Of a stretch of 64,000 bases of DNA, positions 54,601 through 61,892 are shown in pieces. The notes under the pieces are model-generated. The model had not been told where the DNA came from. It ran no database searches and saw only the letters and a list, made by a program, of their open reading frames with translations. Position numbers and translations under genes: made by a program. The stretch covers positions 62,930,001 to 62,994,000 of the forward strand of contig NC_086379.1 of assembly GCF_036588685.1 (NCBI RefSeq), given 5' to 3'. The stretch is from Mytilus trossulus (lineage: Eukaryota). The first letter of the stretch is position 1. The number at the start of each line of letters is the position of its first letter.

Positions 54601-55539
54601 ATTATTTGAAACGGTGTCAAATGTATATTATTGATTTATCTGTAATTGTCTGGTTTTCTTTCTTTAATTTACTATAATCTTAGAATTAAATGCTTTTTAA
54701 GGACCTTTTTATTGCTTATTATTTTATATTCGTATTTATACTGATATGGATAAAAGCGGGAAGTACAGAAATATCAAAAACTAGATTAAACTACCTAGAT
54801 ATTTATGTGTCTGTCCCAAAATTGAAACATTGTCTGCTGTTGACTAATCTTAATTGATGTTTGTTTAATGTTAAACTTTTATTTTTATTTTCATTTTTAG
54901 AATTGGTGTTCTTGGTAGACCTTTATCTGCGTAATTTAATATAAACAGAAAATATTTAATTTCCAAATTTTCACAGAACTTTTTTCTAAAATATCTTTAA
55001 AAAATCTTAATTTCAAATGCGCTTTAACTTTACCAGCCTGATATTCGCGTAGTTTGATATTAAAAAAAAACAAAAAAACTTAATTTCCAATTTTTCACAT
55101 GACTCTTTGTATAAATAATTTTTTTTTTTTTTTTTTTAAATTGATACTTGTTTATTCCAAATATTTCCTGTTTACAATTTCCTCAGTTGCCCAGGATGCA
55201 AACTGTGGATTCCCGTTTACATTTAAACCAACTGTCCGGGAAGCAGGAGGTTGAAAAATGTGCACTATATTATCCGAAAAAAATAGTATACATGTAATAA
55301 TACTTATATTCTTTTATATGACAATGAGTGAAAAAGGAATATCTTTATAGAATGTACTACTAGTGGTAAATAATATAACATTATAAAATCATAAACGAGT
55401 GCACCTATAAACCAGATTCACATAATATTTAAACATAATCGAGTGCATCTTTAAACCATGGATTACCGTAATCAATATAAATTAAAGAGATATAAAAAAA
55501 AACAGACAACATGACTGCTATCTCCTGCAAGGTATGTAC

Positions 55540-58500
55540 TTATAGTATGAAATTAATTAATGTGTTTATTTTCTCTTTGTCTAATGTATTATTTGATAAG
55601 TAACAGGGTACAGATTTCAGATGTGTTACCATGTATGATTTCCAAAGATTTAAAATATATGTAGAGGACATTTTTATCCCATCATATTTAATTTTGTTTC
55701 TTATTTTCCACAAGGACCATTTTGTCAAAATAAAAAATAGATTTACAAGTAAATTTTGGTTCGAGTGACCACTGCTAATTCCCAAAAGCATAAACTGTTT
55801 TAAATTATCATCATCTAATTGAATATTCCATAATGTAAAAATATCTTTGATTTTACTAATGATTAATTTTGTTGTATTGCAATCAAAAAATAAATGTTGA
55901 AGATTTTCAGTAATATTTACAGTTTGGCAAATATGACATTTTCCGTTTGACAATTGCATTTTTTAAGTCTACTTTCCGTATATATGATATTGTGAATGCA
56001 TTTCCATTGAAATTCTTTCATTTTATTGGTGATTTTAACTTTTTTCAAATTGCCCCATACTATTTTCCAATTAATTTCATGGCCATAGAATTCTTGCCAT
56101 TTAAGTTGACATTTTGGATATATATTCTTATTAATCATGTCTCGAATATATTTTAGTTTTAATTCTTTTGGTTTGATTATTTTCCCAAATCTGTCTAATA
56201 TAACCATTTCATTAGAAAGTTTCAATTCTATGTTTGGTTTCTTATTAATTTCATTATCAATTTCTAACATTTGTAAGAAGTCAATTGGTATTGCACTTTT
56301 AATTCTTGAAAATTCCGATATGCAGTTTCTTTTATCTACAAGTTTTTCAAATATAGAACAACAACTGTTAAATTTGTTGGTTTCTACATTCCATATGTCT
56401 TTGATATATTTCATGTTACTATTTAGAAAGGAAGAAAAAAACAATGGCTTATTTTGAAATGAAATTTTTGAATTACCAAATAGTCTCATATTAAGTACCT
56501 CGTTCTTAGTTTTGGGATTATCTCCAATTTTTAGAAAATTAGACCATGTAAAAATCATTTTCTGATAAAATAAAGGAATATTTTTAATATTTAGTCCTTT
56601 AATATTTGAACATTTACATAAAAAATACTGATCATTATACTTGTTGTCAAAGTGTCGAAGCCAATACTTGCCAATCGCATTCCAGCTTTCTAATGGTTCA
56701 TGGAGAATGCGATAAAGAGACTTTATTTGTTTACTTCTAATGAATAAGTCTATACTAATCATGCCCATTCCGCCCTTTGTTATATCAAGACAACAAACCT
56801 GTCTTTCTATTTGGTTAACTTTCCCATCCCATATAAAATTCCAAATAATATTGTTTATTTCTTTTGAATATTTTTCAAGAATTCCCCGCATTTCAATTTC
56901 ATAACTACACATGGGCAATATGAAATTTTTTACAATTAAGGTTTTACCACTAAATGAAAGTTTCCTGCTTTTCCAAACGTGGACACAGTTTTTAATCTTT
57001 TCTATTATACTTTGCCATATAGCATCATTATCAATTTCATATCCGTGATTTACTCCGAGGGTTTTTACACTACCTGTAATCCATTTAATTTTATTAAATT
57101 TTAGTTTTTTCCTTTTAAGAGATCCTATAAGTAAACCTTTGGTTTTATCAAAATTAATTTTAGATCCCGAAGCTTTTTCGTATAGCGTTAGGACATCAAA
57201 AGATTTTTCTACTGATTTCTCATTTTTGTTAAAAAGCTGAGTGTCATCAGCAAACATGCATAATTTAGTTTCTATACTTTTACCCCCCTCACCAGGTATT
57301 TGAATCCCTTCAATTTCCTTGTTACCTCGTATTGCACATGCCATTGGTTCTGCTTGCAAAATATATAGAAGGGGTGCTATTGGACAGCCCTGTCTGGCTG
57401 AACGTGTTATCGAAAAATATTTTGAAACATGTCCATTTGTTTTTATACAAGTAATAGCATCATAGAGTAGCATTTTAATCCATTGTCTAAATTTCCCCCC
57501 AAAATTAAACTTTTCTAATACAAAATCCACCCATTCCCATTCAACTCTATCAAAAGCTTTTTGTTGATCAAGAAATATTATTATTCCATCTTCGTCTTCG
57601 TTGTCAATATAGTCTATTATATCTTGAATTAATCTGTTAGCATCACTAATGTTTCTTCCTTTTACAAACCCTTTTTGATCTGAATGTATTATTTTCGGTA
57701 AGACTTTTTTCAGTCTCATTGCAAGAAGTTTTGCTATGATTTTATAATCGGTGTTAAGTAATGTAAGAGGTCTCCAATTTTTAATATTTTCCCTTTCACC
57801 ACCCTTATGTAATAACGTAAGAACCCCTTTATGTTGTGATTTACTTAAGACATTTTTAACAAATATTTCTTGAAGGAGTGTGAAAAAATCATTTTTTATT
57901 ATATCCCAATACAGTATGTAAAATTCAGATATAATGCCATCCTCACCTGGTGATTTGTTAGTCTTGAGATCTTTGAGCACTTTTTCTAATTCTTCCATAT
58001 TTATATTACTATCAAGCATCTCCTTATCGTCCGAACTTACCTTATTTTCAATAAATTGGCAAAGCTTTTCACCGCTATTTTTGTCCCACCCTTCAGCCGT
58101 AAAAAGTGTGGAATAGAAATTTACTTGTTCTTTTAATATCGAATCAATATCATATTTATACTCACCCGTTTTTGTTTTTATACGATTCCATAATTTGTTT
58201 TGGCCATTTTTCTTTTCTAAACTAAAAAAATATTTCGTTGATTTTTCACCTTCTTCTGACCATTTAATTTTTGCCCTAATTTTCGCAGATTCTGTCAAAT
58301 TTGTATAAATATCCTTAATTTCGCTTTCAATGTCGGTTATTCTAGAATTGGTGATACTTGTTTTTTCCTCTACTAATTTTAATGCTTCGAGTTGTTTTTC
58401 AAGTTTTTTAATGTGATTGTTATTATATACTCGATTTAGTGTTTTACTTACATCAATTGTTAGAAATTTTATTTTACTTTTGGTAATATCCCACCATTCT

Positions 58501-59379
58501 TGTATATCATTATATTTGTCTTTACTATTTTTCCATCCTTCCCAAAAGATTTTAAAAGCATTTGAAAACTGCTCAGATTTAATTGTATTTAAGTTCATAA
58601 TCCACATACCCGGCCCTCTTTCTATATCATCTAACTTAATTTTTTATGTAACTATTTCGTGATCACTAAATGGGAAATGAGATATACGAGTGTTAAATAT
58701 TTTACTATTCAAAGATTTGCTGCAGAAAATAAAATCTATACGAGACTTAGAATTTCCTCTCTGAAACGTATAACGTTTTGTATCTGGAAATCGAGATCTC
58801 CATATATCATCTAATTCATATCTCAATAAAAGATTTTTTAATTCAATTGTACCGACGTCATTATTTTGATGTGATGGCATTCTGTCTATTTTTTTGTCTA
58901 AAGTACAATTAAAGTCTCCTAATAATACGGTGTAGTGTTCAACGCTATCATCGTCATACACTTTATTTAAGTTGCGCAAATTTTCGTAAAAAGTCTTTCA
59001 ATCGGAACCGTTGTTCGGTGTATATACAGACGAGTTGTATATACATTAATAATATGATATACAGCATTATCTTTTTTATGTCACACATTTGACATCTTCC
59101 GTTTTCATCGTGATTTGTAAAAGTTACATTTTCAGAAAAATTCTTTTGCAAAAGGAATCCCACTCCCCTTGAATCAGAAGTTCCGCAATTCCAAACTGAT
59201 TCCCCTCCCCCAAATTTTTTCCAGTCATTACCCCAGTTATCAATATCAGATTTTGAACAATGTGTTTCTTGAAGACAAATAATATCGAACTTTTTTAAAA
59301 CTAACCAATTAAAAATCATATCTCGTTTTTTATTGTTTCGTAAACCATTTACGTTTATAGAAGCAATTGACAAAGACAT
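55540..59379 (-). pseudogene. Retrotransposon ORF2p (APE endonuclease, reverse transcriptase, CCHC), disrupted
   Basis: EN motifs SINVNG, LQETH, LLGDFN, SRIDF and SDH. RT motifs WRPLTLLNTDYKI, FLDQQKAFDRV, RQGCPIAP and FADD. C-terminal CHIC..HLFFDC. Lesions: -1 in A-run ~59072, 17-bp insertion ~59030, TGA 59000-58998, in-frame TAA 58646-58644, -1 in A-run ~55960. Confidence 0.93.
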
Positions 59380-59900
59380 ATTAAGATCGAATAGTTTTTT
59401 GTTTCTTTCTTTCGTCATTTAAATGTTTCACTTGAATGCTTTGAACCTGATTATATCTATTTGGAACAATAAACTTAACGGATCGTTTATGTGTATACCT
59501 TTGTGTAAACAAATCAGGTAAAACTTTAATCATAAAGCGTCGTTTAAAAACCGTATAAGGTGTAATAAACAGATTCTCATCATATAACAATACTAAGCGT
59601 CGTTTAAAAACCGTAAAAGGTATAATAAACAGATACTTATTCATCTTCTCAATATTTAACAATACAGTTTGGTATAGCTTAGCAATGTTTGCACTTTTTG
59701 CAATATATACATATAGGCATATAAACGAATTATTTTTAAATAACATATACATACGAAAAATATGTTTTAAAAAGTGGACATAATATTTACAGTGATACAT
59801 TTGTGTTTTTTGTTTGTTTTTTTTTTTTTTTGTTTTTTTTAAATATTTGTTTTTAACATTAAAATCAGATTAAGTAGTCTGAGTGTTTATTCACATGGGT

Positions 59901-61362
59901 TTAATCATGATCTATTCCTGTCTCTTTTCTTGATACTTTGGATGTCCGGTCTGCAGATGTTGGAGTAGTTTTGTCACTTCTGTTGCGTTTTCGATCAATC
60001 GGAGTGTTTGATACGACGACGTTTGTGTTTGGGCTATTTAGAAACTCACACAGTTTACTGTTAATTCTTTGTGCGCCCTCTGTGCTGACGTGTACCCCAC
60101 TACTGTCATTTTTATCAAACAATGTTCTGATTACAGCTCCGTGTTTATAAAATTGATCATTTATATCAACAAATGCTACAGATTGTTCTCGAACACAAAG
60201 TTTTTTCATGAAACTATTTACGTTTTTGGTTGTTTCATTTATTTTCTGAAACTGAGCGCCGTTGCCTTTTCGCGGTATGATATTGCAAAGGCCTATCTGT
60301 GTCTCTGGAAAGCTAGACTTTACACGATTGACAGCGCTTGTTACAAGAAGGTTTATTTGATCAGAGTCACTTTTATTTCTACTTATGTCGTTTGTGCCTA
60401 GACAGATAACAACCTTTTCAATATCTTTGTTTTCAGTTTTTTGAAAAGCTAGATCAATGTTTTGTTCAATTTTGTCAAAGGATCCTCCAGATATTGAAGC
60501 GTTCACTACCGAATCGTCGATATGTCCGAGCCTAATGCAATTAGATGCTCCAAGGAGAACAGACACCGTCTCTCGTTCACAATTTGTGTTGTCTGATGCG
60601 ATGGATTCCTTGTCGTCTTCGTCAGTGTGAATGTTTTTTGTATTGTCTTGTCTACCCTCTAATATTTCAGGACCATAACTGCCCAATTCCTTTTTTTCTG
60701 TTTCCTGTTTGTACTGTTCACAGTCTCGTCTGGCGTGACTTTTGGCGTTACAGTAAGAGCAGTAGGCTTCACTTGTACAGGCGCTAGCTACGTGACCTAT
60801 ACCACAACAATTGTAACATCTCTTTTGATTCATGAGACTTGGTTTGTCCTTACATCTGTATGAAGGATGACCTGTGATATGACAATAAATACATGGAGTG
60901 CGATTGTTATCAGCAAAAAGTTTTACTTCAAAACGACCAAAAGATGTTCTATTCGGAAGCACTGTATCACATTCCAAAATATCAATATACCGAGACCCAT
61001 TTTCGATGTTTGTGCCTTTTATAACGCCTCGTTTTAAAGAACCTGGAACCACCTTACCAAATCTAAGCATTTGAGCAACAATATATAAGTTGTCTAGTTC
61101 GTAAGGTGCGTCTTTTATCGTTACATGAGTAATTAAACTCTCTACTTCGTAAAATTTAACAGATCTGTCTCTTAGTGCGATGCCTTGAGCCGCTAGTCTG
61201 TCTTTACTTTCAGGGTTTTTTAGGGTTACTATGCAGTCTTTTTCAGTGATTTGAATTGATAATACATCCTCAATATCAATTTCCTTAGCAATTTCTGACA
61301 ATACATCATCATGGGATATCCCTTTGAGTCCCTTGGTGAAAAAATGTATAGATAACTGTCTG
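59901..61362 (-). CDS. Retrotransposon ORF1p: putative RRM-like N-terminus, 3 CCHC zinc knuckles, SGNH/GDSL esterase domain; start codon lost to 5' truncation
   Basis: Frame is open from the TSD junction (..QLSIHFFTKGLKG..) to TAA at 59903-59901. Knuckles CIYCHITGHPSYRC, CYNCCGIGHVASAC and CSYCNAKSHARRDC. SGNH blocks VLLGASN, SISGG, VVICLGTNDI and DSSGVHVS. The ORF track start at 61301 is a TTG. Confidence 0.88.
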
Positions 61363-61892
61363 TTTGTATAAATAAATTAAGTAATCTTAAATCTGTGAAC
61401 ATAACCTATCTTAAGGTTGTACTCCTCTGAGGAGCCGAAAAAAATCTATATTTTTTTTTTTTATTTTTGGTTTTATATGTAAACAAAACATTGATGAAGA
61501 CAAAATCATGTGGTGGTGCACTTCTTTTTGCTACGGCCCTTTGACGGTGCCAAATTTTAATGATTGTCCAATTTTTCATAAATTTTTACCCATTTTTGGG
61601 TTATTATCGTGAAGAAATCACAGTTCCAGAATTCAACTTTTTCCATACTTTCAATAGAGATCTGAATAAATTTAACTTAAAAAACACTCTAGGCAGGTCT
61701 TGATATATATGTTTTATCATATATTGGTGCTTTTTCATGTCAAATTTACCATATTGTCAATTTTGTATATAGTTTTGGGATAGTTGTAACTTTTAGGGTA
61801 TTCGTTAACAACCAATTGTGCAATAAACTGAATAATTATTAAAAAAAGATTTAAAAAAAATCATTTCTTGCAATCTTTACCCATTTTCTTAA

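Follow-up and report, generated by a model that had tools for sequence, protein, structure and literature searches.

The 64,000-nucleotide stretch of Mytilus trossulus DNA analysed here (the window) contains a minus-strand LINE copy whose ORF1 is predicted to join two RRM folds and three CCHC zinc knuckles to a C-terminal SGNH esterase domain, beside an ORF2 assigned to L1-Tx1. Schneider et al. 2013 described esterase ORF1 proteins as a class without structural RNA-binding domains and with a coiled coil upstream; their survey found no pairing of an esterase with an RRM, and they suggested that the combination never arose or that the two are mutually exclusive (PMC3905857). The predicted architecture is a direct counter-example to this exclusion and would extend ORF1 esterases to the L1 superfamily, making LINE esterase function testable in an ORF1 that carries RRM and CCHC domains. 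The protein falls within the definition of type I ORF1, lies outside that of type IV and carries a family-specific form of the esterase.

The features of the element are given below from its 5′ to its 3′ end, in positions of the window.

61363–61375, no strand: 5′ copy of the TSD, 13 bp; within the window the identical 13-mer occurs only at 55106 and 61363
59901–61361 (frame 59904–61361), minus strand: ORF1, open frame with 486 codons preserved, stop at 59901–59903, start codon and 5′ UTR lost
61152–61361, minus strand: predicted RRM-fold domain 1, residues 1–70 (VIA Z 9.9, rmsd 1.9, 71 residues aligned to an RRM)
60906–61148, minus strand: predicted RRM-fold domain 2, residues 72–152 (Foldseek and VIA matches)
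60720–60893, minus strand: three CCHC zinc knuckles, residues 157–170, 182–195 and 201–214 (match to the pattern CX2CX4HX4C)
60576–60719, minus strand: helix 215–242 and acidic low-confidence linker 243–262 (model, composition)
60033–60575, minus strand: SGNH/GDSL esterase domain, residues 263–443 (Pfam, AlphaFold, Foldseek, VIA)
60543–60545, 60486–60488, 60390–60392, 60105–60107 and 60090–60092, minus strand: putative active-site codons S273, G292, N324, D419 and H424, respectively
59904–60032, minus strand: basic low-confidence tail with a KRxR...TPxS motif (pI 10.0; pLDDT below 50 from residue 447)
59380–59900, minus strand: inter-ORF spacer of about 520 bp (one contig of run X1 covers 58753–60151)
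55540–59379, minus strand: ORF2 with APE endonuclease, RT and C-terminal CCHC (Pfam; tblastn with the intact ORF2 of locus L005)
55119–55539, minus strand: 3′ UTR with AATAAA (55151–55156) and poly(A) tail (55119–55137), from the sequence
55106–55118, no strand: 3′ copy of the TSD, the same 13-mer as at 61363

Classification of the Element

ORF2 and its surroundings show the traits of L1/Tx1 elements, namely APE, RT and a C-terminal CCHC in ORF2, a poly(A) tail and a TSD. Pfam recovers Exo_endo_phos (5e-8), RVT_1 (5.5e-35) and, weakly, zf-RVT (0.017), which is listed for most near homologues. The motifs WRPLTLLNTDYKI and GGMG and a C-terminal C-x2-C-x8-H-x4-C knuckle, the latter sitting behind a frameshift, are all present, in agreement with an earlier note on this DNA that had called ORF2 L1/Tx1-like. 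The best PDB match of ORF2 is human L1 ORF2p (9e-55), with R2 at 4e-17; as the PDB matches include no CR1, L2 or RTE protein, they do not by themselves fix the clade. In the RT alignment of PMC10294476, the row M.edulis_278_LINE shows a single residue difference from the window across two stretches compared by eye. This entry is classed as L1 / L1-Tx1 with seven RT members in Table S7 of the same paper, whose RT tree includes 259 references. Through this near-identical RT we assign the element to L1-Tx1. A CR1, L2 or RTEX identity of the RT was also considered and rejected.

In an RT tree of 123 rows, the window and three loci from metagenome contigs (L003, L005 and L007) fall into one set of 83 rows with an SH-aLRT value of 99. 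This tree was made by a quick method with a midpoint root and no labelled references, and L004 and one other row were dropped on account of short alignment. Since the ORF1 type of this set is taken from the window and these three loci, the tree does not establish monophyly of esterase-bearing Tx1 elements.

The earlier note also proposed that the element might define an undescribed Tx1 lineage, a claim that holds for the protein more than for its carrier. Bivalve L1-Tx1 families were classified by RT in Martelossi et al. 2023 (PMC10294476), and ORF1 architecture is undescribed in the portions of that paper considered here; the word "esterase" is absent from the accessible main text of PMC10294476 and PMC11203168. 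Two consensus sequences among the first 24 of 223 L1-Tx1 labels in the curated library of that study (S.glomerata_8 and S.grandis_47) appear, by eye, to start with the N-terminus of this ORF1. Other entries there clearly differ, so that the RRM/CCHC/esterase ORF1 is one of several bivalve Tx1 types. It is therefore the architecture that is undescribed in the literature searched, while the elements themselves appear to be catalogued as L1-Tx1 through their RTs and, apparently, some consensus sequences.

Domain Organisation of ORF1

The modelled order of domains is RRM-RRM-CCHCx3-helix-acidic linker-SGNH-basic tail. Three CCHC knuckles, an acidic linker and four motifs retaining S, G, N and H had been noticed earlier, and all of them were located; that first reading had missed the two RRM folds in residues 1–152, as well as the missing start codon, a mark of 5′ truncation. 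The RRMs are predicted folds taken from a separate model of residues 1–222, and a Pfam search of ORF1 detected no RRM. The VIA top 50 rows for this N-terminal model consist mostly of RRMs over residues 1–75, and its Foldseek match to tandem RRMs is HuR (4egl, E = 9.5e-7). Domain 2 matches 2ek1 in VIA (Z 8.9, rmsd 2.4, 74 residues aligned over 77–152). It is also the most conserved domain of the family, with a mean pairwise identity of 55% in an alignment of 57 near full-length matches picked from 97 proteins. The knuckle region gives profile matches to nucleocapsid and Air2 knuckles; across the 97 proteins, query included, three knuckles occur in 65 and two in 21. The linker (7 D/E, 1 K/R) has a mean identity of 11% within the family.

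The SGNH fold suspected in the earlier note is well supported by Pfam (Lipase_GDSL_2, E = 5.2e-13, 50.3 bits against a cut-off of 32.9) and by an AlphaFold model built from 57 sequences, whose mean pLDDT is 81.9 over ORF1 and ranges from 81 to 97 per 10-residue block over 261–440. Known SGNH hydrolases match the domain in Foldseek (7.8e-11) and VIA (Z 19.6, rmsd 2.6, 172 residues aligned, 263–444), with O-acetylesterases (sialate O-acetylesterase, PAF-AH, OatA) as its nearest structural neighbours. With an esterase-only profile, the best PDB match is the ZfL2-1 ORF1p esterase of zebrafish (4c1b, E = 4.1e-11), separated by a small gap from bacterial 2hsj (2.5e-10). The full-length profile places 2hsj first and 4c1b sixth, while 4c1b ranks 40th in Foldseek and is absent from the VIA top 50. 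The motif KRxR...TPxS of the basic tail recurs in 37 of the 57 aligned homologues and is a possible nuclear localisation or phosphorylation site; the tail might also supply charge.

According to the portion of PMC4120745 considered, type I ORF1 proteins have one or two RRMs followed by CCHC and are found in Jockey, I, R1, Tad1 and plant L1 and L2. The window ORF1 resembles them in having two RRM folds directly before three CCHC knuckles and differs by its added C-terminal SGNH domain and basic tail; the table rows of PMC4120745 considered hold no type I subtype with an esterase. Type IV proteins (CR1, L2, RTEX; ZfL2-1, PDB 4c1a/4c1b) likewise carry a C-terminal SGNH domain that conserves S, G, N and H and follows a linker of low conservation, but they are built on a coiled coil with an arginine-rich motif, whereas the window protein has RRM-RRM-CCHCx3 and accompanies an L1-Tx1 RT. 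Type IV is defined by the lack of an RRM and by a coiled coil upstream; here there are two RRM folds, three knuckles and only a 28-residue helix ahead of the linker, with no long coiled coil in ORF1.

Non-LTR esterases are placed in CR1, L2 or RTEX only in the portions consulted of PMC4120745, PMC13343379, PMC5408684, PMC5478143, PMC6431247 and 10.1101/788562. The portion of PMC5203782 considered reports RRM/CCHC combinations consistent with Tx1 and mentions "esterase" only in a reference; PMC5940361 likewise contains the word only in its references. The literature searched, mostly open papers, yielded no description of an esterase in an L1/Tx1 ORF1 or together with RRM/CCHC. Shuffling of ORF1 domains is a familiar theme, and the esterase may already have been the subject of a Repbase note. 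A GDSL ORF3 in bdelloid Vesta LTR and Athena Penelope-like elements is described, in the relevant part of PMC5408684, as captured independently of non-LTR esterases. It is SGNH accessory cargo of a retroelement too, although it is stand-alone and unfused, whereas the window SGNH domain is fused to RRM/CCHC. Since rotifer LTR elements took up GDSL independently, a separate capture of the ORF1 esterase is possible.

Active Site of the Esterase Domain

The motifs LLGASN, SISGG, CLGTND and DSSGVH supply S273, G292, N324 and H424. Among the 57 aligned proteins, S273 is kept in 57, G292 in 54, N324 in 55, D419 in 53 and H424 in 56, in a domain whose median column conservation is 42% and in which only 20 of 181 columns reach at least 90%. 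The putative nucleophile Ser, the oxyanion-hole residues Gly and Asn, and the His all lie within the 16 most conserved of these 181 columns. In the wider set of 96 RRM/CCHC-type domains, 81 keep all four residues and the Ser is invariant (96/96).

Block V reads DxSGxH rather than DxxH, with a Ser at His-3 in place of the usual Asp, which corrects the earlier reading of this motif. The canonical His-3 Asp occurs in only 2 of the 57 aligned and 3 of 124 labelled domains, and a profile alignment to 4c1b sets the catalytic Asp279 of ZfL2-1 against S421. An Asp at His-5 without one at His-3 is present in 106 of the 124 labelled domains, indicating that block V has been remodelled family-wide. We infer that either D419 takes the acid role or the enzyme works as a Ser-His dyad. 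A dyad of this kind serves some SGNH enzymes that are active, among them certain CE2 esterases (PMC9487903), so that activity is still possible without DxxH. Judging from the conservation of its site, the SGNH domain is probably enzymatically active.

H191 and S228 of ZfL2-1 are transposon-specific, and the double change H191F/S228A abolishes activity (PMC3905857). These residues map to positions 320 and 359, where the window copy has C320 and C359. His and Ser occur there together in 35 of 96 RRM/CCHC-type domains and in 9 of 27 NADAR-type relatives, and the two positions co-vary in the 57 aligned proteins (15/5/3/34, Fisher p = 4e-7, uncorrected for relatedness). A Cys/Cys pair replaces H191/S228 in 19 of the 57, within the subgroup that holds the window copy (60390–60404 and 60285–60287). 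The family thus differs from ZfL2-1 in block V, the window copy also at the H191/S228 pair, and both in charge: the esterase domain has a pI of 7.8 in the window and a median of 7.1 across the 57 (range 5.3–9.3), against 10.8 in ZfL2-1. R364 is invariant and R277 near-invariant in the aligned domains, which suggests an anionic substrate.

Homologues and Linkage of ORF1 to ORF2

A protein search gave 4,240 candidates, 96 of which are homologues. Five bivalve genera are named among them (Mytilus, Saccostrea, Ylistrum, Pinctada and Pecten); the earlier note had proposed to look for the architecture in mollusc genomes. The closest proteins are 98–99% identical and named Mytilus edulis, and identities within the family go down to about 30%. 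Many records carry the label "CNBP", by which databases mislabel proteins of this family as host genes. A search of viral contigs gave 61 pattern matches, with no relative among them. In the ESM Atlas, the whole ORF1 protein falls into one unnamed cluster, and the domain falls into GDSL clusters whose commonest phyla are Mollusca, Annelida and Chordata; we treat both results as leads only.

Ten ORF1 loci (L001–L010) were taken from metagenome contigs. In seven of them an endonuclease or a full ORF2 starts directly downstream of ORF1, either abutting or overlapping it (L003, L005, L007) or just behind it (L001, L002, L004, L009). The contigs of L006 and L010 end inside ORF1, and that of L008 ends 68 bases past it. 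Unbroken ORF2s of about 1,245 codons are found in L005 and L007. In mussels the family is young and present in multiple copies, and intact relatives exist (L007; the ORF2 of L005).

Distances in the N-terminal part and in the esterase correlate among the 57 aligned proteins (Spearman 0.67, Mantel p = 0.001), consistent with a fusion that is ancient and has been passed on whole. The family is therefore best read, from its sequences, as an old and diverse lineage and not as a recent chimera of the window copy. The chimeric ORF1 of the earlier note thus stands as a fusion of RRM/CCHC and esterase, whereas a recent or copy-specific origin does not agree with 96 homologues, identities down to about 30% and correlated distances. 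An esterase-only profile built from nine sequences collected 71 representatives at E values up to 1e-30. The top 150 esterase relatives comprise 49 proteins with RRM or CCHC plus SGNH, 25 with NADAR plus SGNH, 3 others and 73 whose N-terminus is too short to class. The esterase tree (107 rows, from 125 dereplicated at 75%) lacks a ZfL2-1, CR1 or RTEX reference and is weakly rooted; it therefore does not reveal which group donated the esterase.

The nearest non-family ORF1-like match is a protein of 737 aa (P0343) with a long helical region, in which H, S and DxxH are kept. It looks like a coiled-coil esterase ORF1 and is a possible representative of the donor class.

In L002 (421–2350), ORF1 is intact and ORF2 consists of an endonuclease start joined to the C-terminus, with a 3′ end like that of L005; this locus is an internally deleted copy that keeps ORF1. 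The 3′ ends of L002, L005 and L007 share a conserved hairpin-like GGATC-TTT-GATCC between AATAAA and poly(A), a motif not seen at the 3′ end of the window element.

NADAR-Bearing Sister Proteins

Sister ORF1s read RRM-RRM-CCHC-NADAR-SGNH, with NADAR inserted between the knuckles and SGNH; the window ORF1 has no NADAR. They include P0092, P0096, P0272, P0274, P0278, P0282, P0289, P0290, P0294, P0300, P0304, P0311 and P0313. Seventeen of the 25 NADAR plus SGNH proteins among the top 150 esterase relatives also carry RRM or CCHC. On the 107-row tree, NADAR-bearing esterases occupy two separate clades, equal to two changes. Of 27 NADAR-type domains, 14 retain the complete set of S, G, N and H; in one NADAR-bearing group the block III Asn is gone (C in 9/27). 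A homologue search with a NADAR-bearing ORF1 returned six proteins.

NADAR in ORF1 of Crassostrea gigas Tx1 LINEs (Repbase) has been noted in PMC12477816. Those elements likewise carry an enzyme domain in ORF1, although NADAR is absent from the ORF1 described here. The terms "esterase" and "SGNH" have no occurrences in the text and searched supplements of PMC12477816, where the pairing of NADAR with SGNH is unmentioned.

Possible Functions of the Esterase

By precedent from type I ORF1 proteins, the two predicted RRMs and three knuckles would coat or package the RNA of the element, and a flexible linker would carry the SGNH domain, probably a slow active acyl-esterase. Catalysis would proceed through Ser273 and His424, with D419 or a backbone carbonyl in the place of the canonical Asp. 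The esterase may dock the particle on membrane lipids and then release it, as proposed for zebrafish ZfL2-1, and may have come from a pool of transposon esterases before a long co-inheritance with RRM/CCHC. If the RRMs and knuckles do handle RNA binding, the esterase must do something besides standing in for them. We give this reading as a whole about an even chance of being correct, and are least sure of its lipid or membrane substrate. The ZfL2-1 esterase is able to hydrolyse both pNP-acetate and butyrate, and its surface charge lets it bind liposomes (PMC3905857). The lipid- or membrane-binding module of the earlier note extends this behaviour to a domain with a pI of 7.8, and we take it as an analogy only.

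The same near-neutral charge is compatible with an active esterase that acts as an "eraser" of host acetyl or acyl marks on the particle, its RNA or a small metabolite, as a counter-defence beside NADAR. We consider this rather unlikely. It draws on the NADAR carried by 25 of the top 150 esterase relatives in two separate clades, on the O-acetylesterases among the closest folds and on the conserved R364 and R277, which may point to an anionic substrate. Fold neighbours, however, do not show function; the ZfL2-1 esterase displayed no histone-peptide deacetylase activity (PMC3905857), and the loss of the block III Asn in one NADAR group does not suggest obligate coupling of the two enzymes. A broader form of the same idea, which we hold to be doubtful, is that a deep L1/Tx1 lineage of bivalves and marine samples uses a further class of ORF1p, in which an RRM-RRM-CCHC RNA scaffold works with the DxSGxH esterase and, in two clades, NADAR to strip host acyl and ADP-ribosyl marks from the particle. 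If true, a LINE coat protein would be armed with enzymes for counter-defence, and the proposed mutual exclusion of RRM and esterase would be overturned.

Instead of acting as an enzyme, the domain could give ORF1 a surface for binding RNA or protein, or a contact for oligomerisation. The OSK domain of Oskar would be its counterpart: this SGNH fold is non-catalytic, also matches the model (Z 16.9, rmsd 2.8, 165 residues aligned) and is weakly matched by Pfam in relatives. The loss of the DxxH Asp, the replaced H/S pair in the subgroup of the window and the short helix in place of a long coiled coil agree with such a role. We find it unlikely all the same: a binding-only domain is not expected to keep the whole site, as seen here in the conservation of Ser, Gly, Asn and His and in a Ser without exception, and Oskar, according to PMC3905857, no longer has hydrolytic activity. 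Very improbable, finally, is that the frame is a host gene, as the CNBP names of close homologues and a spacer with its own AATAAA and A-run might suggest, or a chance copy-specific fusion beside an unrelated LINE. One TSD surrounds both ORFs, one contig spans the spacer, and the frame, which no intron interrupts, has numerous diverged paralogues in Mytilus; the linkage of ORF1 to ORF2 in seven of ten loci refutes both a host CNBP gene and a copy-specific chimera. A slow active acyl-esterase tethered to an RNA-coating ORF1 remains our preferred reading.

The Inserted Copy and Its Surroundings

A single TSD pair encloses ORF1 and ORF2, and the rough chance of such a 13-mer at 55106 and 61363 is about 1e-5. 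The last three bases of the 5′ copy match the element too, as microhomology. One contig of run X1 (contig 8) departs from the window at 61365 and continues for 247 other letters, in which an ATG lies in frame five codons ahead of the first complete ORF1 codon (read by eye from the loose end of the contig); the window copy is hence 5′-truncated just inside ORF1. Its ORF2 is broken near 59071, 59019 and 55958. At each of these breaks the contigs of runs X1, X4 and X15 depart from the window sequence, so the lesions are private to this copy. Being 5′-truncated and carrying three private ORF2 lesions, the window copy is dead.

The spacer is spanned by the X1 contig listed above and therefore belongs to the family, although the ORFs of relatives L003, L005 and L007 abut or overlap. 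An AATAAA lies 9 bases past the ORF1 stop and is followed by an A-rich run, and ATTTAAAA precedes both this run and the 3′ end of the element; an ORF1-only mRNA might be made from the element. The spacer also holds a 46-nt direct repeat (59535–59580 and 59595–59640). Contigs of two RNA libraries cover much of the element, although contigs cannot show transcription. The depth of X4 contigs, which is not a copy number, climbs toward the 3′ end of the element, as expected of truncated LINE copies.

Target-sequence specificity is a trait of many Tx1 families. A junction in X4 that skips 55078–61447 was considered as a candidate empty site and rejected for its short sides and the 28 other letters between them. 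The left flank (54936–55122) contains 63-nt units 124 bases apart, and contig depth over the right flank (61483–61700) is very high; the element thus sits among other repeats.
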